Source: an uncultured bacterium (lineage in GTDB: Bacteria > Chloroflexota > UBA5177 > JANWHV01). Taken from it: DNA of 64,000 nucleotides. Each line of letters opens with the position of its first letter. Positions within the stretch are counted from its first letter, which is position 1. Positions 4,793 through 19,101 of this stretch are shown piece after piece. The translations under genes and the position numbers were made by a program. Below the pieces are notes generated by a model. That model did not search any database and was not told the origin of the DNA. It saw only the letters and a list, made by a program, of their open reading frames with translations. The stretch is from positions 1,184,001 through 1,248,000 of the forward strand of contig CAVSOU010000010.1 in assembly GCA_963729625.1 (NCBI GenBank), read 5' to 3'.

Positions 4793-4834
4793 CTTGACGC
4801 GCTGTCAGAATATCATATATTATCCATCATATCC
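4793..4834 (+). promoter_or_regulatory. sigma70-type promoter (TTGACG...TATTAT) with embedded putative GntR operator
   Basis: Near-copy of the element at 8122-8163; lies in a divergent intergenic region. Confidence 0.65.
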
Positions 4835-5027
4835 AAGAGGCGCCGCCCGACGACGGCAGCGGTGCAGGCTGCTGCATGTGTTGGGGCTCGAGCGATAGCA
4901 GTGCGTTCGTTGTTCGACGAGGGGCCATGCACAGAGGTGGGCGCGGGCGTTGAAGCGGCAGAGGACGCTCTTCATGAGGTACATCTGCTGAAGCTTGAAT
5001 TCTGAAGCTGAAAGCGGGAGACGAAAC

Positions 5028-5861
5028 ATGATCGCCGACTGGTTCGACCTCTCCGGGCACGTGGCAATGGTAACCGGGGCAGGCGCAAACGGAGGAAACG
5101 GCCACGCGATCGCCGTGGCCTTCGCGCGCTCGGGCGCCGACGTGTTCGTAAGCGACATCGACGAGCACGGCATGGACCAAACTAGGCGCGAGATAGAAGA
5201 CCTGGGCCGTGTCTGCAGCGGCTGTCGTTGTGACAACGGCGATCCGACACAGATCGCGGCAATGTTCGAGCAGTTTGATCGCGCGTTCGATTGCATCGAC
5301 ATTCTGGTCAACAATGTGGGAATCGGCTGCCGATCGCATCCCGAGGATCTCACGCTGGAGCGATGGCGTAGGGTGATGGCCGTTAACCTGGAAGGGACAT
5401 TCCTGTGCGCGCGTGAAGCGGGTACGCGCATGATCCGGCGTGGTCGCGGCGGCAACATCATCAACATCGGGTCGATTGCCGGCGTGACGGCTCTCGGCCG
5501 GGGTAACTTCGTGTATAGCGTCACCAAAGGCGGCATAAACCAGCTTACTCGCGAGCTCGCGGTGGAGTGGTCGCCGCACCAAATCAGAGTAAACGCGATC
5601 CTGCCTGCACAGATTCTGACCCCGTTGCTCCAGCAAATGTTCGATGATCCGCGCCTGAACACGCAGCGGCTGCGCGAACGCCTGCTGGCAGGCATTCCCC
5701 TGGGTCGGCTGGGCGAGCCCGACGACGTCGCCAAGGCGGCGGTCTTTCTGGCTTCCGATGCCGCCTCGTTTATTACCGGTCACCTGCTGCCTGTAGACGG
5801 AGGCAATCTCGCTCTGAACGGCGGCGGCAGCCGCGTGTGGCCCAGCGACGACGAAAGCTAG
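5028..5861 (+). CDS. SDR family oxidoreductase
   Basis: TGAGANGGNG, NNVG, YSVTK and ITG motifs; GGGAG RBS before ATG 5028. Confidence 0.9.
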   Translation: MIADWFDLSGHVAMVTGAGANGGNGHAIAVAFARSGADVFVSDIDEHGMDQTRREIEDLGRVCSGCRCDNGDPTQIAAMFEQFDRAFDCIDILVNNVGIGCRSHPEDLTLERWRRVMAVNLEGTFLCAREAGTRMIRRGRGGNIINIGSIAGVTALGRGNFVYSVTKGGINQLTRELAVEWSPHQIRVNAILPAQILTPLLQQMFDDPRLNTQRLRERLLAGIPLGRLGEPDDVAKAAVFLASDAASFITGHLLPVDGGNLALNGGGSRVWPSDDES

Positions 5862-5946
5862 GACGAAATCAGCCTCCGGCCGCAGCCGGCAGGCCCACGC
5901 CGCAGTGGGGATCCCGTTCCATCCGGACGCACACGGAGGCCATTTT

Positions 5947-7116
5947 TCAGACTGAAGATGGCCGCGCGGCATCGCGCGGTATCTCCAACAGCGAGTCCGC
6001 GGAATAGAGACCTAGCCCACGCGGAATACCAGGGTGCGCGCGGGCAACCTCTTCGTTGAGGTCGATGCCCAATCCAGGTCCATCCGGGACGCGCACCTTG
6101 CCGCCCACGACGCGGATTGGCGGCGACGCCAGATCATCCCGCCAGGGCGCGTCACCAGGGTCAAACATCTCCTGAATCTGCACGTTCGGCAGCGTGGATA
6201 CGACCTGCAGGGTTGCAGCCGAGGAGATCGGGCCGGCCGCGTTGTGAGCGGCCACGCCGACAGAATACGCTTCAGCCATCACGGCAATCCGCTGCAGCTC
6301 TGCAATCCCGCCCACATGGATGACGTCGGGCTGGATCAACGGCACCAGCCGGGCCTCGAGCAGGTCCCGATAGTGCCAGCGCGAGTACAAGCGTTCGCCA
6401 AGCACGATTGGAATCCGGCACTGCCGTACCAGCTGCACGATGGCCGCGGGATCGTGAGGATGCACAGGCTCCTCGACGAAGAATGGATCGTAGGGTTCGA
6501 GGCGCTGAAGAAGGCGTAGAGCGCTGAGCAGGCCGAAACGTCCGTGTGCATCGAGACCAATGCGCATGCCGGCTCCGACCGCGGCGCGCACGGCGGCCAC
6601 GGTGGCGACGCCGCGCTCGATCTCGTCGCCGCTCTGCGCGAACGACGCGCGCCCGAAAGGATCAAACTTGAGTGCCCGGTAACCCAACGCGAGTGGCTGG
6701 CTCGCGGCCGAGGCGAACTCGGCAGGCGTGGTGGCCCCGAAGTACCAGGCGTTGGAGTAGGCCTCGACCTCGTCGTGCAGCTTGCCGCCGAGCAACGCGT
6801 GCACGGGCACACCGAGCGATTTGCCCAGGATATCCCAGAACGCCATCTCCAGCCCGCCCATGGCGCTACGCAGAACGGGCCCGTCCATCCAGAACGAATC
6901 GCGGGTCATCGTGCGACGATGCTCCTCGATGCGCCGCGGATCGCGTCCAAGGAGCTCGCGCCTGTAATCTGCTACCGCGCCCTGCACGGCAGACTCTTTG
7001 CCTTCCAGGCTGCATTCACCCCATCCTACGATGTCCACGTCCGTAGAGACTTTGACAAAAACGAAGTTGCGATAGAGTCCGTCCACGAACAGCGTCTGGA
7101 TATCTTCGATCTGCAC
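5947..7116 (-). CDS. mandelate racemase/MLE family dehydratase (galactonate dehydratase-like)
   Basis: GWGE, LKFDPF, LDAHGR, FVEEP, GERL, QPDV and AAHN motifs; GTG start at 7116 after AAGGG. Confidence 0.9.
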   Translation of the reverse strand: MQIEDIQTLFVDGLYRNFVFVKVSTDVDIVGWGECSLEGKESAVQGAVADYRRELLGRDPRRIEEHRRTMTRDSFWMDGPVLRSAMGGLEMAFWDILGKSLGVPVHALLGGKLHDEVEAYSNAWYFGATTPAEFASAASQPLALGYRALKFDPFGRASFAQSGDEIERGVATVAAVRAAVGAGMRIGLDAHGRFGLLSALRLLQRLEPYDPFFVEEPVHPHDPAAIVQLVRQCRIPIVLGERLYSRWHYRDLLEARLVPLIQPDVIHVGGIAELQRIAVMAEAYSVGVAAHNAAGPISSAATLQVVSTLPNVQIQEMFDPGDAPWRDDLASPPIRVVGGKVRVPDGPGLGIDLNEEVARAHPGIPRGLGLYSADSLLEIPRDAARPSSV

Positions 7117-7379: not shown

Positions 7380-8117
7380 CTATAACGTGTTGCCGATCCG
7401 CTGCAGGGCTGCCGGCATGACCACCAGCTCCGGCACCAGCACGCGTGGCGGCAGTTGCGCCAGGAAGGTGATGATGCTGGCAAGGTCGTCAGGCACCAAT
7501 GCCTTGGCCAGCACGTCAGCAGCCGGCGGCTCAGGCCGCGCGTTCAGCAATGGAGTATCAATGAGACCGGGGCAAACCGCAGTGACACGCACGCCGTATC
7601 TCTGCTCCTCCAGGCCAATCGCATGGGCCATCCCCAGTACCGCGCGCTTGCTGGCTTGATAGGCTGGTCCGGAGGCATCAGGCCAGCGCGCCGACACCGA
7701 GGCGATGATCACCACGAGGCCGGCGCGCGCCCGCAGCATCTGGAGGCACGCCTGTGTCACATTGAAGGCGCCCGTGGCATTCGTATCGAGGATGCGCTGC
7801 CAGTCCTGGCTCGAAAGTTCTTCGAATCTGCGACGCTTCACATTGATGCCGGCGGCGCATACCAACAGATCCAATCCGCCGTAGTCGTCGTGCAATTGCG
7901 CCGCGAGCGTATCCACCTCCGGCCGGCTCGTGACATTTAGCGGCAAAACGCGCACGTTCGGCGCTTCCGCCGCGAATTCCTGCAGCGTGGGATTGTCGAG
8001 AGCGGCGCCGACGATCGTGAATCCTGCCGCGGCCAGGTGCAGGCAGGTAGCCCGGCCAACTCCGCTACTCGCGCCCGTCACCAACGCCACGCGACCTTTT
8101 GCACCGGGATTGACCAT
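7380..8117 (-). CDS. SDR family oxidoreductase
   Basis: TGASSGVG, YQASK and CPGLIDT motifs. Confidence 0.9.
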   Translation of the reverse strand: MVNPGAKGRVALVTGASSGVGRATCLHLAAAGFTIVGAALDNPTLQEFAAEAPNVRVLPLNVTSRPEVDTLAAQLHDDYGGLDLLVCAAGINVKRRRFEELSSQDWQRILDTNATGAFNVTQACLQMLRARAGLVVIIASVSARWPDASGPAYQASKRAVLGMAHAIGLEEQRYGVRVTAVCPGLIDTPLLNARPEPPAADVLAKALVPDDLASIITFLAQLPPRVLVPELVVMPAALQRIGNTL

Positions 8118-8121
8118 ACTG

Positions 8122-8163
8122 CTTGACGCCCTTCCGAATATCAGATATTATCGACCATATTCC
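8122..8163 (+). promoter_or_regulatory. sigma70-type promoter TTGACG-N17-TATTAT with palindrome AATATC-A-GATATT
   Basis: Canonical spacing; the palindrome overlaps the spacer and -10; shared with the element at 4793. Confidence 0.7.
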
Positions 8164-8343
8164 AAATTTGCTGCCATAGTAGCAAACGGCGTCTGCTGAG
8201 TCAAGCGCCCGATCTCGACGGCGCTGCTTCACTTGCTGACCGGAGATCGTCGGTGCGGTTACCGGGGCGCCACATGTGCCAGTGCCAGGTTTGCCTTGAG
8301 CGGGCATGAGGACATGTACCGGGCGAGAGAAAGGCGGAGCCCG

Positions 8344-9141
8344 ATGCTCGTCGGGTTGAACCAGGCGTCGTTTCCAGGAGTGTCGACGTCGGAGTTCATG
8401 GATATTGCCGCTCGAGCCGGCGCGGAGAACGTGTCGCTCCACCCGTACCGGGGTTCCGAGACCCATGCGGAGATCATTGCGCAGGCGCGGGCCGGAGGAG
8501 TCCGTGTCGCCGCCGTCGACGAGCTGATGGATTGGGCGCTTCCCGACGATCCATACCCGCATCCCGCGTTCGAGTCGTTGATCGAGCTGGCAAAGTCGGT
8601 CGGAGCACCCCTGCTCGTCTGTGTGGCCCCCCTCCGTCGCGAGGGGCTGCCTCCGCCGTCGACCGTCATGCGGTCTGCCGCTGAACGACTCTCCCTGCTT
8701 GCGGAGACTGCCAGGTCGCATGGCATCTCTCTCGCGCTTGAGCAGGTTGGGCGCTCGTCGACCCGGCCGGACGTGCGGAGCGGCATACGATCGCTCGCAA
8801 ACGCCTTGACGATCGTGGAACAGGCGGCTGATGACGTGCTGCTCGTCCTGGATGCGTTCAATATCGCGACGGCCGACGACGGATTCGACCAGATGCGCAA
8901 GCTGCCCGCCAGGCGCATCGGCATTGCTCACATAAACGACGCCGATGCGCAACTGCTGTCGCGCGTGTCGCTCGGCGAGGGCGTCCTTGACCTTCCGGGC
9001 TTCGTGCAAGCGCTTCACTCCCGCGGCTACGAGGGCTCGCTTTCACTCGAGCTGTTTCCAAGCGCGCCATGGCCTGATCCCTACGCAGAGGCCGCAAAGG
9101 CGGTGCAGGCTATCGTTCAACTGCTGGCAGCAGCGGCCTGA
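8344..9141 (+). CDS. sugar phosphate isomerase/epimerase (xylose isomerase-like TIM barrel)
   Basis: LALEQ, LDAFN, HINDA, R...GEG and GYEGSLSLELF motifs. Confidence 0.8.
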   Translation: MLVGLNQASFPGVSTSEFMDIAARAGAENVSLHPYRGSETHAEIIAQARAGGVRVAAVDELMDWALPDDPYPHPAFESLIELAKSVGAPLLVCVAPLRREGLPPPSTVMRSAAERLSLLAETARSHGISLALEQVGRSSTRPDVRSGIRSLANALTIVEQAADDVLLVLDAFNIATADDGFDQMRKLPARRIGIAHINDADAQLLSRVSLGEGVLDLPGFVQALHSRGYEGSLSLELFPSAPWPDPYAEAAKAVQAIVQLLAAAA

Positions 9142-9417
9142 CCTGCTCGCGGCGCGCCACGTTCTCCAATGCGCCAGGCAGACACGGCGTCCGCGTCCGC
9201 AGCAAGACACACACCGTCGATCGCCTCTTCCGCCTCCCGGTGGTCTGGCCCGTTTGATCTACGAAATGGCCGTGCTGCGCTAGAATGAGCGTTGAAAGGC
9301 GGCGATGCACCGCCTGAGCGGGCAGATCGGCCCGACGCGTGGGTGCATTCCCGACCTCGATCGCCCGGCGCCGTTTGTTTGCCATGCGGTCGCTGCAGAC
9401 CTGAAGGAGAACTGGAT

Positions 9418-10611
9418 ATGAAAATCACCGAGATCGAGACGTTGCGGTCAGCCGAGTATCCAAACTTGATCTGGGTGCAGCTTCATACGTCGGAGGGACT
9501 GGTCGGGCTCGGCGAGACATTCTACATCCCCGGGGCCGTTGAAGCCGTGATCCACGACTTTGCCGCACCGCTTCTGTTGGGTCAGTCGGCGTTTGACCGC
9601 GAGCGGCACTGGCAGAACCTGTTCTCCTATGCCAATTTCTTCGGTTTCGCCGGTGCTGAAATGCGAGCCATCTCCGCATTGGATATCGCGTTGTGGGACG
9701 TGATCGGTCAGTACCTCGGTCAGCCGATTGCTAACCTCCTGGGAGGGCGTTGCCGCGAGTCGATACGCGTCTACAATACCTGCGTCAACACGCCACTCTA
9801 TGCCGACCAGGACGGCTTCGTCGAGCGACCAGGCGAGCTTGCCGAATCGCTCCTTGCCCAGGGCATCACCCAGATGAAAGTGTGGCCGTTCGACCGTTTT
9901 GCTCCCCAGATCTCCATCGCAAGTGTCACCGGGCCGGCCGGCTGGTCCGCCGTCGGCCCATGCGGTCACTCGATCACTCCGGCCGACCTGCAACAAGGTC
10001 TGTGGACCGTCCAGGAGATCCGCAAAGCCGCCGGGAGCAGCATGGAGATCGCCATTGAAGGCCATTCCCGTTGGGATCTCAACACGGCACTCCGCATCGC
10101 ACGAGCACTGGAACCGTACGACGTCGTCTGGATGGAAGACATAATCCAGCCGGACTGCGTGGATGATCTGGCCAGGTTGGTGTCGGAGACGCGCGTGCCG
10201 CAGTGCGTCAGCGAGCGGCTGTTCACCAAGTACGCCTTCCGCGAGGTACTCGACCGGCGCGCGGCACACATCGTGATGCCGGACATCATCTGGACCGGCG
10301 GGATTACCGAAGCGTGCAAGATCGCTGCCATTGCCGATGCTCATCACCTGGCGATCGCGCCGCATGATTGCACCGGCCCGGTGAATCTGTTCGCCTGCCT
10401 GCATCTGTGCGCCGCCGTACCCAACGTTATGGTCATGGAGACGGTGCGCGGCTTCTGCGAAGGATACTACCGTGACGTCGTGACGAAGCCTGTAACCATT
10501 CGCGATGGTTCGGCCTACGTGGACGACACGGCCGGACTGGGAGTAGCACTGCGACCTGAGCTGCTGGCTCGCGCCGACATGCAGCGACGAATCTCGACGG
10601 CCCAGCACTGA
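9418..10611 (+). CDS. mandelate racemase/MLE family enzyme
   Basis: GLGET, MKVWPF, IEGHS, WMED, SERL and PHDCTGP motifs; AAGGAG RBS. Confidence 0.9.
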   Translation: MKITEIETLRSAEYPNLIWVQLHTSEGLVGLGETFYIPGAVEAVIHDFAAPLLLGQSAFDRERHWQNLFSYANFFGFAGAEMRAISALDIALWDVIGQYLGQPIANLLGGRCRESIRVYNTCVNTPLYADQDGFVERPGELAESLLAQGITQMKVWPFDRFAPQISIASVTGPAGWSAVGPCGHSITPADLQQGLWTVQEIRKAAGSSMEIAIEGHSRWDLNTALRIARALEPYDVVWMEDIIQPDCVDDLARLVSETRVPQCVSERLFTKYAFREVLDRRAAHIVMPDIIWTGGITEACKIAAIADAHHLAIAPHDCTGPVNLFACLHLCAAVPNVMVMETVRGFCEGYYRDVVTKPVTIRDGSAYVDDTAGLGVALRPELLARADMQRRISTAQH

Positions 10612-10702: not shown

Positions 10703-12034
10703 TCAGGTGAGCCCTCGCAGCGTCTTGCCGTCGAGAAACCCGAAGGCGTATGCACCGGCATAGCCGACCATATCCGCGCACTCCTCCTCGATACGGAGCA
10801 GGCGGTTGTACTTGGCCAGTCTCTCCGAGCGTGCTACAGACCCAACTTTGATCTGGCCGGAACGTGTTCCCACGGCAAGGTCCGCAAGCCAATCGTCCTC
10901 CGTCTCCCCGGAACGGCCGGAAACAACTGTCGCGTAACCGGCTTCGCGAGCCATGCGGAGAGTATCCAAGGCGCCGGACAACGTGCCTGCCTGGTTGACC
11001 TTGACCAATACGGCGTTTGCAACACCGTCTGAAATACCCTTGCGCACCCGCGACGCATCGGTCGCGAAAAGATCATCTCCGATCAGCTGCACGCGAGCGC
11101 CCAATCTGCTGGTCAGCACCTGCCAACCTTCCCAGTCATCTTCGCCGAGCCCGTCCTCGATGGAGATCAGCGGGTAGCGGTCCACCCATTGCTCCACCCG
11201 CGCAATCATCTCCGCGCTTGTGAGCCGCGGCTGCGGCGAGCCCTCGTGCCGGAGGTCATAGGTGAGCCCGCGGCAGAACTGCGTCGCGGCGACGTCGAGG
11301 GCCACGGCAACGTCGATTCCGGGTCGCAGCCCGGCTCGCTCGATGGCCCGAACGACTGCCGCCAGCGCGTCTTCATTCGTGGGCAGCGCAGGGCCAAATC
11401 CTCCCTCATCGCCGACCAGCGGTGTGTGTCCCATCTCGATCAAGAGCGATCGAAGCGCCCAATACACGCTTACGACCGCTTCAAGCGCAGCCGAGTAGGT
11501 GTTGGCGCCAACAGGCATGGCCAGAACGTCCTGGATGTCGAGGTTCCCCCCGGCATGGGCTCCGCCCGAGATCAGATTTACCATCGGGAGCGGCAGTATC
11601 GGTTGCACGCCGCAAAGCTGAGCGATGTACCGGTAGAGCGGCACGCCGGTTGCCTCGGCCGCGGCACGCGCAGCGGCCAGCGAGATCGCGAGCGCGGCGT
11701 TGGCTCCGAGCCGAGCAAATCTTTCGCTGCCGTCCGCGAGAGTGAGGGCGTCGTCGAGCCCGGCCTGATCGCGCGCGTCGCGCCCGAGCACCGCTGGTCC
11801 AAACATGTCGCACGCGTTGCGTACTGCGCGATAGACACCGCGCCCCGCCCACCCGCGCTCGCCGTGGTCACGAAGCTCATGGGCTTCGTGCGATCCGGTG
11901 GACGCGCCTGACGGCACGCTGGCCCGCCCCATGATGCCGGAGACGAGAGTGACATCTGCCTCAACCGTCGGCGCGGCGCGCGAGTCCAGAACCTGGCGGG
12001 CCGCGACTGCGGCAATAGCGTGGCTGTTCTTCAC
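10703..12034 (-). CDS. eno: enolase paralogue (phosphopyruvate hydratase-like, altered active site)
   Basis: VPSGASTG, GDEGGF, SIEDG, GDDL, KVNQ, RSGETED, QIK and RSERLAKYN retained; DIQE->DIQD and SHRS->SGRS. Confidence 0.85.
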   Translation of the reverse strand: MKNSHAIAAVAARQVLDSRAAPTVEADVTLVSGIMGRASVPSGASTGSHEAHELRDHGERGWAGRGVYRAVRNACDMFGPAVLGRDARDQAGLDDALTLADGSERFARLGANAALAISLAAARAAAEATGVPLYRYIAQLCGVQPILPLPMVNLISGGAHAGGNLDIQDVLAMPVGANTYSAALEAVVSVYWALRSLLIEMGHTPLVGDEGGFGPALPTNEDALAAVVRAIERAGLRPGIDVAVALDVAATQFCRGLTYDLRHEGSPQPRLTSAEMIARVEQWVDRYPLISIEDGLGEDDWEGWQVLTSRLGARVQLIGDDLFATDASRVRKGISDGVANAVLVKVNQAGTLSGALDTLRMAREAGYATVVSGRSGETEDDWLADLAVGTRSGQIKVGSVARSERLAKYNRLLRIEEECADMVGYAGAYAFGFLDGKTLRGLT

Positions 12035-13095
12035 CTTTCCTCCACCCTGCCAAACAGCTCGTCGACTCCAGTGACCGTGCCGCGCAGCAGGGCGGCCCCC
12101 AGGACTCGTGCCGTGGCAAGACCGGCGGCATCCAAGTACTCGACTCGGGACTTCCCGTCGGCTCGGGCTCGTATGAGACAGCCGGCCTGCCGCAGGGCGC
12201 CATCAGTGGCCTCGCTCAATCCGCGCCTCTCGACGGCAGCTGCGTAGCCCTCGAGAAAGGCATGAGCTGCATCGGCCAGCGACGCGGCCGCGGCCGGGCG
12301 GTGGATCGCCTTCAAGGCGAGATGCGTGAGCAGGAACGCGGTGTCGAAATCCGGATTGCCCCAGTGCACCACCTCAAAATCGATGGCCATTACACCTCCC
12401 GCGGTCACGAGCAGATTCTTGGGACTGTAGTCGCCGTGAACGAGCGTAGAGCGCCGGCCGGTCATCGCATTGGCGCCCTCGCGCAGCAAGCGCGCCACGT
12501 CGTGCTCGCCTCGTTCGTCGGCCACATCGGCGGCCCGCCCGTGATAGGGGTCGAGACGCAGCTGCCGGAACAGATCAAGGTTGCGGAATTGCGACGCGAT
12601 CTCCATGTCGTCCCAGGCGGCCCGATGCATCCGTCCGAGCAACGTTCCGACTTCGCGAGCAACATTCGGATCGACATCGCCTCTGAGCAGCGCGTCTTTC
12701 CATGGCGTGGCCGCAGCCGGCGCGCACGCCATCCCCACCAGAGAGGCTGACTCATCGACGAAGAGCACACGCGGAACACTGCCGTGAGGTAATCGTGCAC
12801 CAAGTGCGGCCATCGCGCGGCCTTCGAGCACGGCACGCGTTGGATCTGCCAGCCACAGCTCAGGCACCCGCAGCCGGGCGAGAGCGCCTTTCACCACGAC
12901 GCCGCCATTGCACTCGAAAAGGACGACCCAGTTGGAAATCCCCCCTGACAGCAGTCGCCATGGCGGCAATGAGCCACCATTGACGTAGCCGAGCCGGCGA
13001 AGGTGCGTCAGCGCGGCCGCGAAGAAATGCTGTGGCGGCTCGGATTGATTCGCGTCTGCCAGGTCCGGGAGCGTAGAATCATGCTCGTCGCTCAC
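12031..13095 (-). CDS. APH / methylthioribose-kinase-like phosphotransferase
   Basis: LSGGISN, VVKGA, QLRLDPY, HGDYSPKN, IDFE and DGKS motifs; GTGA overlap with the enolase. Confidence 0.85.
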   Translation of the reverse strand: MSDEHDSTLPDLADANQSEPPQHFFAAALTHLRRLGYVNGGSLPPWRLLSGGISNWVVLFECNGGVVVKGALARLRVPELWLADPTRAVLEGRAMAALGARLPHGSVPRVLFVDESASLVGMACAPAAATPWKDALLRGDVDPNVAREVGTLLGRMHRAAWDDMEIASQFRNLDLFRQLRLDPYHGRAADVADERGEHDVARLLREGANAMTGRRSTLVHGDYSPKNLLVTAGGVMAIDFEVVHWGNPDFDTAFLLTHLALKAIHRPAAAASLADAAHAFLEGYAAAVERRGLSEATDGALRQAGCLIRARADGKSRVEYLDAAGLATARVLGAALLRGTVTGVDELFGRVEER

Positions 13096-13205
13096 AGAGA
13101 TTCTCCGTCCTCGCGCCTCGGAAGTGGCCGGTCAGTCATCTCATGGATTGTAACGTAGGAGCTCATTTGCGCGAGCCTGGCATTGTCAGATACAGTGTGC
13201 TGCGG

Positions 13206-14177
13206 ATGTCCGCTACATTGCCGGATGGACGTGTCGGTTTGATACTGTCGACTGCCGAGACACTTGGTGCTCTGCCCCCTTCGCTCAAGGCTGTGGCAGA
13301 GCGGCAGCTGGTGGCGTCTGAACCTGTGCTCGGTGCAGTATACCTCGTGAGCTTCAGAGATCCGCCAGCCGTTCTCTCGCGAAGCAGGAGCGGCGGCAGG
13401 CTGCCGAGAGTGCCGGGACGGGCGCTGATTGTCACCCAGGCACGCGTGCTCGTACTTGACGACCCTGCGGATCGTGCAAGCACCAGCGCCGCGCACCAGT
13501 TCGTCACCGCTGCGTGCCCGCTCGACGCGATTATCGGCATTGAGCTTCGCTCGCATCTATTGGATTGCGCTTTCACGCTGGTGCTGGCGGCACCCGATGG
13601 AGCGCGCCGCGTGACGATCGGGTATAACGGCGTGAGCGAGCCCGACGTTGTTGGCGCCGTGCACCTGATTCGTAGGGCGATGGATCTCCCAGAAAGATCG
13701 GCCTCGGCCGATTCCCACGAACCTGTATCCGCCGAGCAAGGTGACGCATCGCGGCGCGCATTACACGGGCTGAGCCTCCGGCAACGCAACTACGTGCGGA
13801 AATATGTGCCCTCGCCCGAGCAACTGCGCAGTTTGCTGGCAATTCCTGCACTACCGCGTGGCCGATCTTGGCGCCGCTTCAGTTTGCTGGCACACGAGCA
13901 GCCCGCCGCGCTGCTAGCAAGAACGGATCGGCAGGTCTTGCTGGTCGAGAACGCGCCACGGGTGCTCCGCCGGGCGGCTTCCAACGGGTGTGACGCGTGG
14001 TTCATGCCGGTGCGTTCACTTTCTTGGGCGGAGCTCCGGCAGGGTCAGTCAGAATCCACGCTGGCCTTTGGCCTTGGAGGAGCGAAAGCATGTTATACCG
14101 TGGAAGTTGCCGTGCCCGCGAGCCTCTCGCAACAGGCGGCGACATTTTCCCGGACGATTCACTCGAACGTGCGCTGA
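13206..14177 (+). CDS. hypothetical protein, possibly tandem PH-like domains
   Basis: Long ORF directly before glcF with two similar blocks (ALIVTQARVLVL and LLARTDRQVLLV); start at 13143 or 13206. Confidence 0.55.
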   Translation: MSATLPDGRVGLILSTAETLGALPPSLKAVAERQLVASEPVLGAVYLVSFRDPPAVLSRSRSGGRLPRVPGRALIVTQARVLVLDDPADRASTSAAHQFVTAACPLDAIIGIELRSHLLDCAFTLVLAAPDGARRVTIGYNGVSEPDVVGAVHLIRRAMDLPERSASADSHEPVSAEQGDASRRALHGLSLRQRNYVRKYVPSPEQLRSLLAIPALPRGRSWRRFSLLAHEQPAALLARTDRQVLLVENAPRVLRRAASNGCDAWFMPVRSLSWAELRQGQSESTLAFGLGGAKACYTVEVAVPASLSQQAATFSRTIHSNVR

Positions 14178-14192
14178 TCCAGAGGTGTATCC

Positions 14193-15563
14193 GTGCATGA
14201 CCAAGAGACGGATGTGCCGTCACTCCGGAAAAGCCCGGTAACGAACCGGCAGCTGGGGCTGCTCGACCTACCGAGCGTCAGCGCCCTCGAAGCCTGCATT
14301 CGCTGCGGCCAGTGCCTGTCTGTCTGCCCGACGTACAGACCTACCCGGGTGGAGGCCAAGTCGCCGCGGGGTCGCATCGCGCTTGTAAAGAACATGGTCG
14401 AGGGGCAGCTTGACCTGCGCAGTGCCGCCTTGTCGCAGCACATGGATCTCTGTCTCCAGTGCATGGCGTGCCACACATCCTGTCCAACGGGCATCAGTGC
14501 CGGCGAGGTGGTCGCCCAGTCCAAATCATACATGCGTGCGGCCGCGCGCCCCGGCAGAGTAGAGCGGATGGTCAAGACGCTGATCTACAAGCAGCTGTTG
14601 CCGCACCATCGGCGGATGGAGCTCGCATCGTTGCCGATCCGCATCTATAACCGCAGCGGACTACAGCGAATGACCCGTCGGCTGGGTCTGAACCGCTGGC
14701 TGCCTGGACCCCTGCGCCGCATGGAAGAGCTGCTTCCCGCCCGCATCGCGCGGCCGCTTCGGCCACGTCTCGCCGACCGGATACCCGCTGTGGGCGCCGA
14801 GCGCGCCGAGGTGGCGTTTCACCTGACTTGCGTGAATAACGTGCTGCTGCCCGAGGCCTCCGCGGCATCCGTCCGGGTGCTGGCCTTCAACGGCTGCACG
14901 GTCCTGCGCGCGCCGGGGGCCGGCTGCTGCGGTGCCCCGCATGAGACCAAGGGCGAGATGGAGATCGCGCGCGACCTCGCCCGGCGGAACATCGCTGCCT
15001 ATGAGGCGCTGGGAGACTGCGTGGTGATCTGCGATGCCGCTGCCTGCGGCGCCACGTTGAAGCACTATGGGCACTGGTTGCGCAACGACCCCGTCTGGGC
15101 CGAACGCGCGCGCCGTTTCAGCGCCCGCGTGCGCGACATCCACGAGTACCTCGTCGAACTCGGCCTGGTCCAGCCGTCAGGTGAGCTGCGCCGGAGGGTG
15201 ACCTATGCGGATCCGTGTCACCTGTGCCATGCCCAGGGCATCGGCAAGGAGCCTCGGGAGCTGCTACGGGCTATCCCTGGCATTACCTATGTGGAGCTCA
15301 AGGAAGCGACGTGGTGCTGCGGCAGCGCAGGCACGTACAACATCGAACAGCCGGAGATGGCCGACACAACCCTGGAGGCCAAGATGACGCACATTCGCCA
15401 GACCGGAGCAGCGGTGGTAGCTTCGGCGAACCCCGGCTGCTTGCTGCAGCTGGAAGCCGGCGCGCGTCGCTACGGCGTGCCGGTTCGAGTGCAGCAGCTG
15501 ACGCAGCTCCTGGACGAGAGTTACCGCAAGGGCAGACAGAAGCCGAGACGGGAGGGCAACTGA
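14193..15563 (+). CDS. glcF: GlcF-like Fe-S oxidoreductase (2x 4Fe-4S plus CCG domains)
   Basis: CIRCGQCLSVCP, CLQCMACHTSCP, CCGA, DPCHL, CCGSAG and NPGC motifs. Confidence 0.85.
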   Translation: MHDQETDVPSLRKSPVTNRQLGLLDLPSVSALEACIRCGQCLSVCPTYRPTRVEAKSPRGRIALVKNMVEGQLDLRSAALSQHMDLCLQCMACHTSCPTGISAGEVVAQSKSYMRAAARPGRVERMVKTLIYKQLLPHHRRMELASLPIRIYNRSGLQRMTRRLGLNRWLPGPLRRMEELLPARIARPLRPRLADRIPAVGAERAEVAFHLTCVNNVLLPEASAASVRVLAFNGCTVLRAPGAGCCGAPHETKGEMEIARDLARRNIAAYEALGDCVVICDAAACGATLKHYGHWLRNDPVWAERARRFSARVRDIHEYLVELGLVQPSGELRRRVTYADPCHLCHAQGIGKEPRELLRAIPGITYVELKEATWCCGSAGTYNIEQPEMADTTLEAKMTHIRQTGAAVVASANPGCLLQLEAGARRYGVPVRVQQLTQLLDESYRKGRQKPRREGN

Positions 15564-15564
15564 A

Positions 15565-17016
15565 ATGAACGCTGACGGGCAGACCGTGATCGACATCGTG
15601 CACGGCACGCCGCTCACCGGCGCCAGCTTCAATGCGATCTCGGATCGAGGGGTCTCGCAGCTCAAGCACCTGCTCGGCGCGGAGCGCGTGCTCACTCTGC
15701 CTGAGGACCTTCAGTCGTATGCGTACGACGGCACCTTCCTCGAGCACCGCCCGGACGTAGTCGTGCTGCCGCGAACGACCGCTGAAGTGCAGGCAGTGCT
15801 CAGGCTTGCCAGTGCCGAGCGAGTGCCGCTTGTGACACGAGGCGCCGGCACGGGCCTCGCAGGGGGCTCCGTGCCTATAGCCGGGGGTATCGTGCTCGCG
15901 CTGGCGCAGATGAATCGGGTGCTCGAGCTCGACGATGTGAACATGCTCGTGCGCGTGCAACCTGGAGTGGTGACCGCCGACTTGCAGGCACTGGTGCTCG
16001 AGCACGGCCTGTATTACCCACCCGACCCTGCCAGCCAAAAGCAGTGCACGATCGGCGGCAACGTCGCCATGTGCGCGGGCGGTCCCCACGGACTCAAGTA
16101 TGGCGTGACCAAGGACTATGTGCTCGGCCTCGAGGCCGTGACCTCGGACGGCTCCGTGCTGCGCACTGGCGGCAAGATGATCAAGAATGTGACGGGCTTC
16201 AACCTGACACAACTCCTCGTAGGCTCGGAAGGCACGCTCGCGGTGATTACCGAGATCATCCTCCGCCTCGTGCCCAAGCCTCGCTCGGCGCGCACGGCCA
16301 TGGCGGTGTTCGACGACATCGACGTGGCAAGCCGAATGATCACCGCCATACTCAACGCCGGGATCGTGCCCGCCACGATAGAGATCATGGATCAGGATTC
16401 GATTCGTGTCGTCGAAGAGTGGCTCCACGCCGGCTTGCCCGTCGACGCTGAAGCAATCCTGCTCATCGAGGCGGACGGAGATCCCGCGGCGGTCGACAAT
16501 GAGCTGCGTGACGTCGAACGGCTGTGCCTGGAGGCCGGCGCCCGCGAGGTTCGTGTGGCGAAGAATGCAGCGGAGAGCGAGACGCTGTGGACGGGACGCC
16601 GCGCCGTGTCCGCCTCAATGGCCCGAGCGCGTCCAACAAAGCTGGGCGAGGATATCAGCGTGCCGCGCAGCGCGATCCCGGAGATGCTGCAAGCCATTCG
16701 TGCCATCGCCGTGAAGTATCACCTGCTGATCCCCGTCTTCGGGCACATCAGCGACGGCAACCTGCACCCCGAAGTCCTGTTCGATCGCCACGACGAAGAA
16801 GAGGTGACGCGCGTGAATCAGGCGGCAGGCGAGATTTTCGATGCCGCGATTCGCCTCGGCGGCACGCTAACCGGGGAGCACGGCATCGGCGCCCTGAAAA
16901 AGGAGTTCATGGGCAGAGCGCTGGACCCAGTCGAGCTGGAGCTGATGCGAAGAGTGAAGAGCGTCTTCGACCCCCAGGGGATTCTCAACCCAGGCAAGGT
17001 GTTTGGCGCTAGATAG
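15565..17016 (+). CDS. glcD: GlcD-like FAD-linked 2-hydroxyacid oxidase subunit
   Basis: RGAGTGLAGG, PPDPAS, GSEGTL, GHISDGNLH, GEHGIG and LNPGK motifs. Confidence 0.88.
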   Translation: MNADGQTVIDIVHGTPLTGASFNAISDRGVSQLKHLLGAERVLTLPEDLQSYAYDGTFLEHRPDVVVLPRTTAEVQAVLRLASAERVPLVTRGAGTGLAGGSVPIAGGIVLALAQMNRVLELDDVNMLVRVQPGVVTADLQALVLEHGLYYPPDPASQKQCTIGGNVAMCAGGPHGLKYGVTKDYVLGLEAVTSDGSVLRTGGKMIKNVTGFNLTQLLVGSEGTLAVITEIILRLVPKPRSARTAMAVFDDIDVASRMITAILNAGIVPATIEIMDQDSIRVVEEWLHAGLPVDAEAILLIEADGDPAAVDNELRDVERLCLEAGAREVRVAKNAAESETLWTGRRAVSASMARARPTKLGEDISVPRSAIPEMLQAIRAIAVKYHLLIPVFGHISDGNLHPEVLFDRHDEEEVTRVNQAAGEIFDAAIRLGGTLTGEHGIGALKKEFMGRALDPVELELMRRVKSVFDPQGILNPGKVFGAR

Positions 17017-17112
17017 TCGCGCCCGCTCATTGTCCGCCGCCGAACGCGTGCGTTTTACACTTGAATGCTCAACAAATGTAATGAAGTGGTCGGCACGAAA
17101 GGACACGGAAGC

Positions 17113-17973
17113 ATGGCCTCTACAACCAGGATACGCTTCGGCATCAAGACCGCGCCTCAACACACGACCTATGAGGATATCCTGCGGGTCTGGAAGGAGG
17201 CCGACGAGCAGCCTCTGCTCGAGCATGCATGGCTCTTCGACCATTTCATGCCGATCTTCAGCGATCCGACGGGCCCCTGCCTGGAGGGCTGGACGCTCGT
17301 CTCGGCGCTTGCCGCCTCGACGCAGCGCCTGCGTGTAGGCCTCATGGTAACTGGGAACACGTACCGGCATCCGGCCGTGCTGGCCAACATGGCGGCTACG
17401 GTCGATGTGATTTCGCACGGGCGGCTGGACTTCGGCCTTGGCGCCGGTTGGAACGAGCTCGAGCATCACGCCTATGGCATTCCACTTTACCCGGTGGGCG
17501 AGAGGATCCGCCGTCTTGGCGAGGCCTGCGAGGTCATTCGACGCATGTGGACTGAGCATGCCGCGTCATTCGAGGGCAAGTACTACCAAATCAGCGAGGC
17601 GTACTGCGAGCCGAAGCCGGTGCAGAAGCCGTACCCTCCGATCGTGATCGGCGGCAGTGGTGAGCGGCTGACGCTCCGCGTCGCGGCCCGATACGCGGAC
17701 ATCTGGAACTATGTCACGGGACCGGTCGAGGAATTCACGCGAAAGAGCGCCGTGCTTGACCAGCACTGCGACGCGGTCGGCCGCGACCCGGCGGTAATAC
17801 AGCGCTCGGTCCAACTGGCCATGGATCCTGGTGACTGGCCGGCCAGCCGGACGCTGGTGCGCAACTTCATCGCCGCGGGAGCGACACACGTGATCCTGAA
17901 TCTGCGTCCGCCCTATCCCGAGCGCATCGCGCGCAGCCTGGTGACGGAGGTTGTCGAACCGCTGTCGTCATAG
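17113..17973 (+). CDS. LLM class, probably F420-dependent, oxidoreductase
   Basis: WLFDHF, EGWT, YRHPAVLANMA, GLGAGW and PKPVQ.P.PPIVIGGSGE motifs. Confidence 0.88.
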   Translation: MASTTRIRFGIKTAPQHTTYEDILRVWKEADEQPLLEHAWLFDHFMPIFSDPTGPCLEGWTLVSALAASTQRLRVGLMVTGNTYRHPAVLANMAATVDVISHGRLDFGLGAGWNELEHHAYGIPLYPVGERIRRLGEACEVIRRMWTEHAASFEGKYYQISEAYCEPKPVQKPYPPIVIGGSGERLTLRVAARYADIWNYVTGPVEEFTRKSAVLDQHCDAVGRDPAVIQRSVQLAMDPGDWPASRTLVRNFIAAGATHVILNLRPPYPERIARSLVTEVVEPLSS

Positions 17974-17988
17974 CAGCCTGCGATTATG

Positions 17989-19101
17989 TCATGACTCGCC
18001 GCCCGGCCCCAGTGCAGCTTGCACCATCTCTCGATACTGCGGTAGAGCCGCGGCCACGCCGCGTAGCAGCCCGAAGCAGCCGCAGAGCATCATGTCGCCG
18101 TGGGGCACGGCCAGATACGGCCGCAGCGGCGATCCGGCCAGCAGCCTGCGGCGAGGCCCCGTCACGGCCAGAAGGTCGGGGACGGTGCGCGGCGGCGCGA
18201 GCGATAGGGCGCCGTGGCCGCGGTCGTCGAAGATCGTCTCTCCCTGGAGCGAGCCATCCGCCAGCGCCTGCACATAGCGCTCCAGCTTCGGGCGATCGAT
18301 TTCCCCGGTGTGGTGTTCGAAGAGGGCACGAATGCGCCCATCTTCCAGGTGGAACGCCAGGGTGTGGAAATTGCCGACATTTACCAGCAGCGTGCTGGAA
18401 GAGTCACGCACCCGGGGATCCTCCAACGCGCCGAGCACCGCGGCTGCACCGGTGTCCATCACGACTACCGGTACGTCGCCAGGCACGTCCGCGGTCAGCG
18501 CCACGAGACGCGTGAGCGAGGCAGGCAGGCGATCCGGCGTATAGGCGAACGAACGCAGATCGTCTCCGCGGCCAAGAGTTCCGCGAAGGAAATCGAAACG
18601 AAAACGCCGGTCGCTGTACCCAGGCGGGGCAGCGCCGTGGTCGAAAGCGGCGAGCGCATAGACGTCGAAGCGGGCGGACACGCCAAAGGCAGACAACGCC
18701 GTCGCAATAGCCCCGGGCATGAAGTCACCGAGTCTCACCCTGCAGGTGCCGGACATCCGATCCGCGTCCTCGTCAGCTACGACCTGCACGCCCATGCGAG
18801 CCACCGCCTCAAGATCGTCATCGAGCGTGCGCGCCGCGTCCGGTGTGGCGAAGACCGGTAACCCGGCCCGCAGGTGGGCATCCACGGCCCACGCGCACGG
18901 GCCACCGCCCATGGTCGCGCCCGTGAGCAATAGCGCCTCGCCGCGGGCAGTGGCAGCCTCAATGAGGCGGGCGACCAGCACGGTCGGCGACGGCATGACC
19001 AGCTTGATGGCGTTCTCAATCTCCTGGCCGGCCTCCAGAATCAGGATGTCCTGCGTGCCTGTTCCGATGTCTATTGCCAGGATCCGCGTCGGATCGCCCA
19101 C
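17989..19101 (-). CDS. DUF1786 family protein (ASKHA-like fold)
   Basis: IDIGTGTQD, MGGGP, DHG, SDR..RF, NVGNFHT, FEHHT and GDMMLCGCFGL motifs. Confidence 0.8.
   Translation of the reverse strand: MGDPTRILAIDIGTGTQDILILEAGQEIENAIKLVMPSPTVLVARLIEAATARGEALLLTGATMGGGPCAWAVDAHLRAGLPVFATPDAARTLDDDLEAVARMGVQVVADEDADRMSGTCRVRLGDFMPGAIATALSAFGVSARFDVYALAAFDHGAAPPGYSDRRFRFDFLRGTLGRGDDLRSFAYTPDRLPASLTRLVALTADVPGDVPVVVMDTGAAAVLGALEDPRVRDSSSTLLVNVGNFHTLAFHLEDGRIRALFEHHTGEIDRPKLERYVQALADGSLQGETIFDDRGHGALSLAPPRTVPDLLAVTGPRRRLLAGSPLRPYLAVPHGDMMLCGCFGLLRGVAAALPQYREMVQAALGPGGES

Follow-up and report, generated by a model that had tools for sequence, protein, structure and literature searches.

An APH-fold kinase and an enolase paralog encoded as a conserved pair probably convert an acid resembling glycerate to phosphoenolpyruvate or a near analogue of it

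Introduction

Enolase proper has long been treated as a family with a single reaction. To our knowledge, among the enolase-family proteins described so far, PhpH of phosphinothricin tripeptide biosynthesis alone takes a 2-phospho(no)glycerate analogue as its substrate instead of 2-phosphoglycerate (2-PG). PhpH provides a precedent for new substrates in the family; going by its description, it is set apart from the system presented here by its location in a secondary-metabolite cluster, by an accompanying mutase homologue and by the lack of a kinase partner.

The same logic, in which a kinase first adds phosphate to a hydroxy acid and the loss of water then leaves an enol phosphate, is followed by the classical glycerate 2-kinases (class I, GlxK/GarK, PF02595; class II, MOFRL, PF05161) acting ahead of enolase in the glycerate, glucarate, serine-cycle and non-phosphorylative Entner-Doudoroff routes. 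The conversion of D-glycerate through 2-PG to phosphoenolpyruvate (PEP) is the chemistry of the last two. The kinds of upstream enzymes in these routes match those encoded around the pair described below, but the kinase studied here has an unrelated APH/MtnK-like fold and its enolase is a dedicated variant. The MTR kinase MtnK (TIGR01767; PDB 2olc, 2pul, 2pyw) is both the closest solved fold and the closest named family to this kinase. The "enolase" of methionine salvage is of the RuBisCO-like or HAD type, whereas the partner of the present kinase is a true enolase. Glycolytic enolase (EC 4.2.1.11) shares with this partner the two-domain architecture, the metal ligands, the Lys base, the Glu acid and the Arg-Ser pair, and differs from it in carrying Glu, His and Asn in place of Asp, Ala/Gly/Val and Ser/Gly, in forming a separate clade, and in that the paralog almost always adjoins or is fused with a kinase. 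A search of the literature outside subscription journals found no paper on such a kinase–enolase pair.

The Locus

The pair is located in a 64,000-nucleotide stretch of DNA from an uncultured bacterium, hereafter the window, and its features are collected in Table 1.

Table 1. Features of the kinase–enolase locus, with positions in the window.
Feature	Position	Strand	Basis and comments
APH-fold (MtnK-like) small-molecule kinase, 354 aa	12031..13095	minus	PF01636, motifs, AF2 model
Enolase-family paralog, 443 aa	10703..12034	minus	Enolase_N + Enolase_C, motif comparison
GTGA overlap: kinase stop TGA (12033-12031), enolase start GTG (12034-12032)	12031..12034	minus	sequence; predicted translational coupling
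GGAGGA, Shine-Dalgarno-like, within the 3' end of the kinase gene and separated by 4 nt from the enolase GTG	12038..12043	minus	read from sequence
Asp169 codon (canonical: Glu)	11528..11530	minus	D in 69/69 paralogs; E in 25/25 canonical enolases
Gly373 codon (canonical: His)	10916..10918	minus	A/V/G in 63/4/2 of 69 paralogs; H in 25/25 canonical enolases
Ser156 codon (canonical: Asn, NGG motif)	11567..11569	minus	S/G in 63/6 of 69 paralogs; N in 25/25 canonical enolases
Gln252 codon (canonical: Glu; most paralogs: His)	11279..11281	minus	H 43, Q 12, E 8, D 5, R 1 of 69 paralogs; E in 25/25 canonical enolases
MR/MLE acid-sugar dehydratase homologue, convergent with the enolase	9292..10611	plus	family matches; context, not part of the conserved unit
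GlcF-like Fe-S subunit (14193-15563) and GlcD-like FAD oxidase (15565-17016)	14193..17016	plus	family matches; context, not part of the conserved unit

An initial sequence-only reading of the locus had reported two open reading frames, a kinase gene and an enolase gene, overlapping as GTGA, and both were found in this arrangement. It had also leaned on the local context, two MR/MLE acid-sugar dehydratase homologues and the GlcF/GlcD-like genes. These neighbours were described correctly; as backing for a function they fail, being not conserved within the genus. The pair sits among glycosyltransferase genes in one genome of the same genus, and another encodes the kinase without an adjacent enolase. 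Complex prediction for the kinase and the enolase gave a score of 0.00, which speaks neither for nor against binding.

The Kinase

The kinase matches the APH family (PF01636, 59.7 bits, cut-off 23.2) and contains a G-loop (GGISN), Lys69, the catalytic motif HGDYSPKN and the Mg-binding motif IDFE. In an alignment with 35 relatives, residues G52, S54, K69, D222, N227, D239 and E241 are unchanged, and several Arg and Lys residues are invariant as well. The AF2 model (pLDDT 93.6) placed the protein nearest to MTR kinases among solved folds in Foldseek (TM 0.70–0.78, 16–20% identity), and the twelve top-ranked matches listed are all MtnK chains or an MtnK model (9a5i). A profile of the kinase retrieved MtnK from the PDB with E-values of 1e-18 to 4e-19. 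Nevertheless, the best named family, TIGR01767, is matched over residues 63–156 only and far below its equivalog cut-off (34.3 against 275 bits), the identity to MtnK is low, and no methionine-salvage genes lie nearby. A role in methionine salvage was dropped on the latter ground and on the nature of the partner, a true enolase. The Pfam scan gave no match to the glycerate kinase families PF02595 or PF05161/MOFRL, and a search of the ESM Atlas returned generic "phosphotransferase" clusters only. The F420 "lactate kinase" CofB was also considered and dropped, as 2-phospholactate lacks a leaving group at C3 and most of the phyla carrying the pair are not known to use F420.

The Enolase Paralog

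The partner is recognised by both Pfam enolase domains (Enolase_N, 157.0 bits; Enolase_C, 322.7 bits) and passes the TIGR01060 equivalog model (514.8 bits, cut-off 300). The motifs SGASTG, GDEGG, ALDVAA, SIEDG, IGDDL, VKVNQ, RSGE and GQIK are kept, and we take them to supply the metal ligands (Ser loop, Asp, Glu, Asp), the Lys base, the Glu acid, the phosphate-binding Arg-Ser and the second Lys. Fifty columns are invariant over 37 paralogs from many phyla, and these include every metal, base, acid and phosphate residue. Such paralogs carry the label eno, "glycolytic process", in RefSeq, and NCBIfam holds no model dedicated to the pair.

Against this background of retained catalytic residues, the paralog departs from the canonical enolase of its own genome in three motifs (DIQE to DIQD, SHRS to SGRS and LNGG to ISGG), with an overall identity of 49%. 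Asp169 and Gly373 presumably occupy the positions of yeast Glu168 and His373, both beside the C3 hydroxyl of the substrate. The significance of these changes was assessed by a column comparison and a tree of 69 kinase-associated paralogs and 25 canonical enolases from the same genomes (Table 1). The retained residues, the three altered motifs and the near-invariance of the Glu168 and His373 equivalents in glycolytic enolases had all been stated in the initial reading, and the alignment agrees on each point. Nine further family-specific columns separate the paralogs from the canonical enolases, which form an exact clade (support 1.0) with all 69 paralogs outside it. Judged from the aligned sequences, the changes to Asp, Gly and Ser are not a matter of chance. 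A one-base change would restore Glu169, yet Asp is fixed in every paralog and residue 373 is never His, which argues for selection towards something other than the canonical optimum.

Conservation of the Pair

Collections with one genome per species yielded at least 577 confirmed relatives of the kinase, and the kinase profile matches 1,397 clusters at 50% identity (E up to 1e-30). Among the best 80 of the 577 kinase loci, an enolase is present in 69, and in 62 it is the next gene downstream, in the same orientation; every readable kinase-linked enolase in these 80 loci carries QD, S[AGV]RS and [SG]GG. The two proteins are fused in frame at one locus (L054) and in two of the best 150 library representatives, both of the latter with the paralog signature. 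All six plasmid loci inspected in cultured organisms encode a signature enolase, with the gene order reversed in two; on the Rhizobium indicum plasmid it lies about 4.6 kb from the kinase. Dehalococcoidia genomes in which the kinase has no neighbouring enolase encode a signature enolase elsewhere (five of five). The proposal that the QD plus S[GA]RS signature tracks the kinase and that the linkage is conserved has thus held over many phyla, at the level of loci, fusions and whole genomes.

The pair is spread over hundreds of species of Bacteria and Archaea, and the family is of ancient origin and broad distribution. Its carriers include abundant freshwater actinobacteria, soil Acidobacteriota, Planctomycetota, Verrucomicrobiota, Chloroflexota, rhizobia, Rhodococcus and haloarchaea. 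Cultured organisms with the kinase include Paracoccus seriniphilus (p420573), Rhodococcus opacus PD630 (pRoPD630_1), Roseibium aggregatum and Sphingobium sp. TomTYG74.

Co-Existence with Canonical Enolase and Glycerate Kinases

The paralog is not the only enolase of its host, as the genome encodes a separate canonical enolase (658.6 bits) directly adjoining iPGM. A canonical enolase is also present in 36 of 40 genomes with the pair, including genomes of 0.9–1.4 Mb. A profile built on the paralogs fails to separate the two classes by score (609.0 versus 598.3 bits in the host genome), and the number of enolase matches per genome and adjacency to the kinase were used instead. Across 301 genomes of the window's phylum, at least two enolase matches were found in 25 of 26 kinase-positive genomes versus 12 of 275 kinase-negative ones, counts that overstate the number of events because genomes of one lineage are not independent. 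The remaining four of the 40 genomes, which showed the paralog alone, are all metagenome bins of unstated completeness, one of them with part of a second enolase at the end of a contig; in these bins the paralog may serve glycolysis. One 98%-complete genome (G076) encodes the kinase with a canonical enolase only.

A class I or class II glycerate kinase accompanies the pair in 38 of 46 genomes, so that in those genomes the kinase is not merely a stand-in for a missing classical enzyme. Both classes are absent from the other eight, and of five actinobacterial pair genomes of about 1 Mb, four lack both (G005, G006, G007 and G030).

Gene Neighbourhoods

Around the 69 linked loci, the genes encoded up to 5 kb away include those for SDR (16 loci), FAH (11), D-2-hydroxyacid dehydrogenase (9), aldehyde dehydrogenase (8), MR/MLE (7), TIM-barrel isomerase-like (6) and IlvD/EDD (5) proteins, and 28 of the 69 loci have none of these catabolic families within that distance. 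The neighbouring D-2-hydroxyacid dehydrogenases resemble hydroxypyruvate/glyoxylate reductase or PGDH (214–260 bits). In Vibrio hannami the operon encodes a PfkB protein, a class II aldolase, an aldehyde dehydrogenase, the kinase and the enolase, whereas in Microbacterium FAH, SDR, kinase and enolase genes lie beside a galactonate dehydratase (560.7 bits, cut-off 311) and a GH2 enzyme. HpcH aldolases are neighbours of the pair in two loci. Rhizobium indicum has ppc, a D-2-hydroxyacid dehydrogenase and the kinase in one operon; this is the only locus with PEP carboxylase, and such a neighbour favours PEP itself over an analogue as the product. The recurrent neighbours point to the glycerate/PEP node. 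They fit a plain route from D-glycerate through 2-PG to PEP as well as they fit the module proposed below.

The first gene of the Vibrio operon bears a weak likeness to sulfoquinovose isomerase (98.2 bits against a cut-off of 700). Sulfonate genes did not recur in the neighbourhoods examined.

Proposed Function

The pair probably turns a glycerate-like acid into PEP or a close analogue. We see a somewhat better than even chance that it constitutes one self-contained metabolic module, in which a glycerate-like acid undergoes 2-O-phosphorylation followed by enolase-type elimination to PEP or a 3-substituted analogue, with the enolase not serving glycolysis. The acid would be supplied by an FAH hydrolase of the acylpyruvate type or by one of two dehydrogenases, an aldehyde dehydrogenase or a D-2-hydroxyacid dehydrogenase, and the MtnK-like kinase would transfer phosphate from ATP to the 2-hydroxyl of this glycerate-like (2R)-2,3-dihydroxy acid. 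The retained Lys of the paralog would then take the C2 proton, the retained Glu would drive the loss of the C3 leaving group, and the resulting PEP or 3-substituted analogue would enter central metabolism. From the carboxylate, metal and phosphate residues kept in the enolase, the invariant Arg and Lys residues of the kinase and the neighbours, we infer an acid substrate and a PEP-type product; the regiochemistry of the phosphorylation and the exact identity of acid and product are put forward in the same conditional sense.

The surroundings of C3 have been remodelled (Glu to Asp, His to Ala or Gly, Asn to Ser and usually Glu252 to His or Gln), and the 2-phospho acid of the paralog would accordingly be expected to differ from free D-2-phosphoglycerate at C3. 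A substrate larger than D-2-phosphoglycerate, or stereochemically unlike it, had been suggested from the sequence alone. The fixed Asp and Ala at two otherwise invariant positions favour such a substrate, while the recurrent neighbours point to ordinary glycerate and PEP. If the module reading is accepted, a C4 or 3-substituted acid, e.g., tetronate or tartrate, and glycerate itself, handled in some altered way, seem to us about equally plausible, each somewhat short of an even chance, with L-glycerate or another acid as a minor option; these are rough estimates.

A more far-reaching version, which we regard as less likely than not, is that the paralogs represent a second, ancient and widespread enolase branch with its own substrate, catalysing together with the dedicated MtnK-like kinase the ATP-primed dehydration of a C4 or otherwise 3-substituted (2R)-2,3-dihydroxy acid (tetronate, tartrate) to a PEP analogue, and that their genes are mis-annotated. 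Thousands of "eno, glycolytic process" genes would then be mis-assigned. A paralog with its own substrate would add the first new reaction to the enolase family proper, together with a new kinase family. As automatic annotation calls the paralog glycolytic, metabolic reconstructions credit it with a step of glycolysis that it may not perform, and a catabolic route is overlooked.

Alternative Explanations

The pair may instead perform known chemistry, a reading that we consider fairly unlikely. The kinase would represent a fourth, APH-fold class of D-glycerate 2-kinase, so far unrecognised, and the paralog would be an ordinary 2-PG enolase, an operon-specific copy for the catabolic conversion of glycerate to PEP, whose altered residues tune kinetics or regulation and not specificity. 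The neighbours converge on D-glycerate, as judged from the reductase- or PGDH-like dehydrogenases, the FAH hydrolase and SDR beside a bona fide galactonate dehydratase and GH2 enzyme in Microbacterium, the aldehyde dehydrogenase that follows an aldolase in Vibrio, the HpcH aldolases and the ppc gene in R. indicum. The score above the TIGR01060 cut-off and the lack of both classical glycerate kinase classes in eight pair genomes, including most of the small actinobacterial ones, agree with this explanation. It is opposed by the fixation of Asp169, one base away from Glu, and the consistent loss of His373, by the retention of both enolases in streamlined genomes of about 1 Mb, and by the classical glycerate kinases already present in most pair genomes. 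Moreover, mutation of Glu168 in the yeast enzyme cuts enolase activity by orders of magnitude.

We know of no pathway for L-glycerate. In a mirror-image route, the kinase would make L-2-phosphoglycerate from L-glycerate derived from L-glyceraldehyde or L-sugar acids, and the paralog would dehydrate it to PEP with the roles of acid and base swapped. Such a route would account for the fact that kinase and enolase both have to be specialised, and the aldehyde dehydrogenase and aldolase contexts are neutral on stereochemistry. The literature searched on L-glycerate kinase and L-2-phosphoglycerate metabolism yielded nothing beyond tests in vitro of L-2-phosphoglycerate as a substrate for an unrelated cytidylyltransferase (PMC12275187). 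We consider the mirror-image route improbable, as the most recurrent dehydrogenase partner is specific for the D-isomer and, reasoning from the known enolase structure, the changes would enlarge the space at C3 of a D-substrate, unlike what a swapped C2 geometry would need.

A similarly low probability is assigned to a scheme of phosphorylation followed by phosphate elimination, in which the kinase acts on the 3-hydroxyl or another leaving position, and the paralog takes the C2 proton while its enlarged C3 pocket releases phosphate or some other bulky group, for instance the sulfite of 2-phospho-3-sulfolactate. APH-fold kinases often pair with phosphate-expelling lyases, and the LxmK–LxmY dehydratase complex is among the fold neighbours of the kinase; with a good leaving group, the lost Glu/His relay would no longer be needed, and the isomerase-like first gene of the Vibrio operon may be counted, weakly, on the same side. 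However, the residues for the 2-phosphate and the second metal are all kept, acidic side chains still stand beside C3, where they would disfavour an anionic leaving group, ATP would be wasted, and sulfonate genes are not recurrent around the pair.

That the paralog is non-catalytic, for instance serving the kinase as a scaffold or regulator or being a duplicate in decay, is highly improbable given the 50 invariant columns with all catalytic residues and the age and spread of the family, despite the loss of two residues invariant in canonical enolases and one genome in which the paralog is split beside an IS element.

Two further ideas were considered. An antibiotic-resistant enolase was dropped, as no biosynthetic cluster is present. 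The PEP-hydrolase-like domain PF09370 was rejected as a general third partner, occurring in five of 46 pair genomes and never adjoining the pair; it is fused to the kinase in three of the best 150 representatives.

Kinase and Enolase Genes in the Window

In the window, the stop codon of an APH-fold kinase gene overlaps the GTG start of an enolase-family gene (GTGA), and GGAGGA is located four bases 5' of this start. The enolase contains both Enolase_N and Enolase_C domains and scores 514.8 bits on TIGR01060, the enolase equivalog model (cut-off 300). It keeps the motifs SGASTG, GDEGG, ALDVAA, SIEDG, IGDDL, VKVNQ, RSGE and GQIK, and carries DIQD, SGRS and ISGG versus DIQE, SHRS and LNGG in the other enolase of the same genome. 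This comparison bears out the kept motifs and the DIQD, SGRS and SGG changes called in the sequence-only reading; residue roles and yeast numbering follow the literature.

Features of the window in and around the kinase–enolase pair
Feature	Position	Strand	Evidence
SDR	4995-5861	plus	209.1 bits
ORF overlapping SDR, 381 aa	4827-5972	minus	no family match
Enolase-family ORF, 443 aa	10703-12034	minus	ORF reading
Kinase ORF, 354 aa	12031-13095	minus	ORF reading
ORF, 344 aa	13143-14177	plus	gene-like codon GC pattern
F420-dependent LLM oxidoreductase	17065-17973		TIGR03560, 284.2 bits
DUF1786 protein	17989-19101	minus	258.1 bits

In Pfam the kinase matches the general APH phosphotransferase family alone, at 59.7 bits; MTR kinase, the named family that fits it best, gives 34.3 bits versus a cut-off of 275, and the kinase passes no NCBIfam model of the June 2026 release. 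The catalytic apparatus is intact: the glycine loop, Lys69, Asp222-x4-Asn227 and Asp239-x-Glu241 do not vary among 35 relatives. Several Arg and Lys residues are invariant as well and could hold an anionic substrate. The solved folds nearest to the confident AF2 model (mean pLDDT 93.6) are MTR kinases (TM 0.70–0.78, 16–20% identity), with PsiK and the lanthipeptide kinase LxmK ranking after them, and a PDB profile search agrees. Full-text searching of the literature it covers returned no description of the pair, the curated libraries Pfam and NCBIfam hold no dedicated model for it, and the Atlas gives generic names only for the kinase. The putative phosphorylate-then-dehydrate arrangement of an enolase-family enzyme and an APH-fold kinase follows a familiar logic.

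The kinase family also occurs in other arrangements. In three library proteins closely related to it (P0162, P0228 and P0236; profile E-values about 1e-100 to 1e-106), the kinase has a PEP-hydrolase-like TIM barrel (PF09370) fused at its N-terminal side; this domain is found in only 5 of 46 pair-holding genomes and never adjoins the pair. Of two other fusions (P0134 and P0138), one is to an FGGY carbohydrate-kinase N-terminal domain and one to a MobA-like nucleotidyltransferase (NTP_transf_3), the latter reminiscent of enzymes for nucleotide activation of a phospho-acid. Nine genomes of one genus (G125, G179, G188, G215, G233, G242, G258, G282 and G322) match the kinase profile in two stretches, about 6–214 and 212–333, with extra sequence between them and the enolase still adjacent, which suggests that sequence is inserted midway through the kinase.

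Conservation of the Pair

A profile built from the 35 relatives was scanned against one genome per species; the scan confirmed at least 577 kinase relatives, from which the 80 best loci were taken forward. An enolase is encoded at 69 of these 80, and all linked copies readable at the relevant columns carry QD, S[AGV]RS and [SG]GG, so that the co-occurrence of QD and S[GA]RS with this kinase, which the sequence-only reading proposed as a check, is upheld. The enolase starts −60 to +150 nt from the kinase stop on the same strand in 62 linked loci; the remaining seven comprise one in-frame fusion, one upstream enolase, one partial case and four enolases 214–2928 nt downstream. Among the best 80 loci, carriers belong to Acidobacteriota, Planctomycetota, Verrucomicrobiota, Chloroflexota, Bacteroidota, Pseudomonadota, Atribacterota and Actinomycetota, including freshwater lineages of about 1 Mb, and one is a haloarchaeon. 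In a quick tree of the kinases, one Dehalococcoidia clade of six and five scattered tips account for the 11 enolase-free loci; five of five genomes from this clade encode a signature enolase elsewhere, with no kinase within 1.5 kb of it. At four loci of the clade (L022, L034, L055 and L069, the others being L057 and L071), genes for a lumazine-synthase-like protein, an AIM24-family protein and a luciferase-like (LLM) oxidoreductase come after the kinase.

A search of 1.84 billion library proteins with the profile gave 1,397 matching clusters (E up to 1e-30), and two of the 150 best matches are kinase–enolase fusions, both with the signature; in a Gaiellaceae bin (L054) the kinase and enolase likewise share one frame. 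Such in-frame fusions are independent support for a kinase–enolase unit. The signature enolase was also present at all six plasmid or chromid loci inspected in cultured organisms (Rhodococcus opacus PD630, Methylobacterium nodulans, Haladaptatus, Rhizobium indicum, Paracoccus seriniphilus and Roseibium aggregatum), where RefSeq labels it 'phosphopyruvate hydratase, eno, glycolytic process'. The gene order is reversed, enolase first, in Rhodococcus and Methylobacterium, and in R. indicum about 4.6 kb separate the kinase from the enolase, which is on the opposite strand; at a seventh locus, in Sphingobium, a gene annotated eno_2 adjoins the kinase. With linkage at 69 of 80 loci, in multiple phyla, in fusions and on plasmids, the pair is a conserved unit, as the sequence-only reading required.

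In L120 (G068) the paralog next to the kinase (7533-8803) is split between an ORF at 7533-8003 and another at 8141-8803; an IS240-type transposase gene is located 3 kb from it, and it may be a broken copy. The kinase-adjacent paralog enolase match at 374661-375926 of G136 contig C1 is reported with one in-frame TAA, for which a sequencing error, a pseudogene or wrong joining of the match could each account. In a Natronomonas bin (G029 contig C6, 14690-16339), another enolase-family gene is found immediately downstream of a MOFRL-type (class II) glycerate kinase match, and this could represent a parallel adjacency built from a classical kinase.

A Separate Enolase Branch beside the Housekeeping Enzyme

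A whole-genome search found two enolase-family genes in the source genome, 49% identical: the window copy (514.5 bits) and a canonical eno (658.6 bits), the existence of which the sequence-only reading had left to be checked. The latter lies about 650 kb off on the same contig, directly adjoined by a 2,3-bisphosphoglycerate-independent phosphoglycerate mutase gene and about 9 kb from a class I glycerate kinase. A second enolase match with a higher TIGR01060 score is present in 36 of 40 pair-holding genomes, including genomes of 0.9–1.4 Mb; the other four are metagenome bins in which the paralog alone was found, one of them with a 24-residue N-terminal piece of another enolase where a contig ends. 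Among 301 sampled genomes of the window's phylum, the kinase is present in 26, of which 22 show adjacency to an enolase and 25 have at least two enolase matches, the lone exception (G076, 98% complete) encoding the canonical enolase only. At least two matches occur in 12 of 275 kinase-negative genomes, six of these resembling pieces of one split gene, or in 11 of 270 without five genomes flagged unpublished (G083, G190, G218, G271 and G316, all kinase-negative). These figures are descriptive counts given with no statistical test, because related genomes are not independent.

In an alignment of 69 paralogs with 25 canonical enolases, the two sets taken largely from the same genomes, 12 columns (window-protein numbering) separate the two: their conservation is 90% or more among canonical enolases and at most 15% shared by paralogs. 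Glu169 is replaced by Asp and His373 by Ala, Val or Gly in 69/69 paralogs, and Glu252 by His or Gln in 55/69. The other changes are Asn156 to Ser/Gly, Met171 to Leu, Gly208 to Ala, Val324 to Thr/Cys and Thr397 to Val/Ile, while the canonical Gly187, Glu189, Leu194 and Lys195 are variable among paralogs. Canonical enolases form an exact clade with support of 1.0 (FastTree). The paralog is thus a separate enolase branch, retained beside the housekeeping enzyme.

Neighbouring Genes

Genes up to 5 kb from each of the 69 linked loci were labelled by BLAST against Pfam-annotated representatives. No gene is constant beyond the pair itself; 41 loci have at least one of the following families and 28 have none: SDR (16), FAH-family hydrolase (11), D-isomer 2-hydroxyacid dehydrogenase (9), aldehyde dehydrogenase (ALDH, 8), MR/MLE dehydratase (7), xylose-isomerase-like TIM barrel (6), Ldh/Mdh (6), IlvD/EDD (5), aldo-keto reductase (4) and DHDPS-type aldolase (2). 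The Vibrio hannami operon encodes an isomerase-like protein, PfkB kinase, class II aldolase, an unknown protein, ALDH, kinase and enolase, and that of Flammeovirga ALDH, kinase and enolase. Microbacterium has GH2, GntR and galactonate dehydratase on one strand and FAH, SDR, kinase and enolase on the other. In Paracoccus and Roseibium, a tricarboxylate-type transporter is encoded upstream of a run that begins with LacI and continues with kinase, enolase, FAH, SDR and sugar ABC transporter genes. The arrangement common to Paenarthrobacter and Sphingobium is VOC, cupin, hydrolase, 2-hydroxyacid dehydrogenase, kinase and enolase, and R. indicum has PEP carboxylase, 2-hydroxyacid dehydrogenase and kinase with VOC, enolase and cupin nearby. 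At two Planctomycetota loci (L065 and L081), a DHDPS-family aldolase and a bacterial-microcompartment shell protein (BMC domain) are encoded immediately upstream of the pair.

Around the pair, the window encodes MR/MLE dehydratases and SDRs (two of each), GlcF/GlcD-like proteins, and one TIM-barrel and one lactonase-like MBL protein, which fit the general theme of the neighbourhoods. The dehydratases and GlcF/GlcD-like genes noted in the sequence-only reading are present, but this context is not conserved within the genus: one genome has the pair between glycosyltransferases and DUF1206, and another has the kinase without an adjacent enolase. At 4827-5972 the real gene is the plus-strand SDR, not the minus-strand ORF. 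The ORF at 13143-14177, directly upstream of the GlcF- and GlcD-like genes, occupies the place where a GlcE-like subunit might be expected; at a threshold as loose as E 0.01 it still matches nothing in Pfam or NCBIfam. The DUF1786 and LLM oxidoreductase genes adjoin each other.

Possible Substrates

The residues holding the carboxylate, metal and 2-phosphate are unchanged in the paralog, whereas the changed first-shell positions, all of which presumably lie on the C3 side of the substrate, have smaller side chains throughout. For this reason we lean, by a little over even chances, towards a putative module in which the kinase would make a 2-phospho-2,3-dihydroxy acid that is unlike free D-2-PG at C3 and the paralog would dehydrate it.

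Rather less probable is a putative isofunctional D-glycerate module. The operon partners are of types that release a short hydroxy acid from an aldehyde, 2-keto acid or 2,4-diketo acid, the simplest such acid being D-glycerate, and the ppc neighbour suggests PEP as the end product; gene context thus favours glycerate to PEP. However, three observations argue that the pair is more than a duplicate of glycerate 2-kinase and enolase. Across phyla, residue 169 is always Asp and residue 373 always small although Glu is one base away, so selection keeps the paralog at an optimum unlike that of canonical enolase; both enolases are kept in genomes of 0.9–1.4 Mb; and 38 of 46 pair-holding genomes already encode a glycerate kinase of class I (24) or class II (14). 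L-glycerate as substrate, elimination of a bulky leaving group by the paralog, and a non-catalytic paralog are given smaller odds still.
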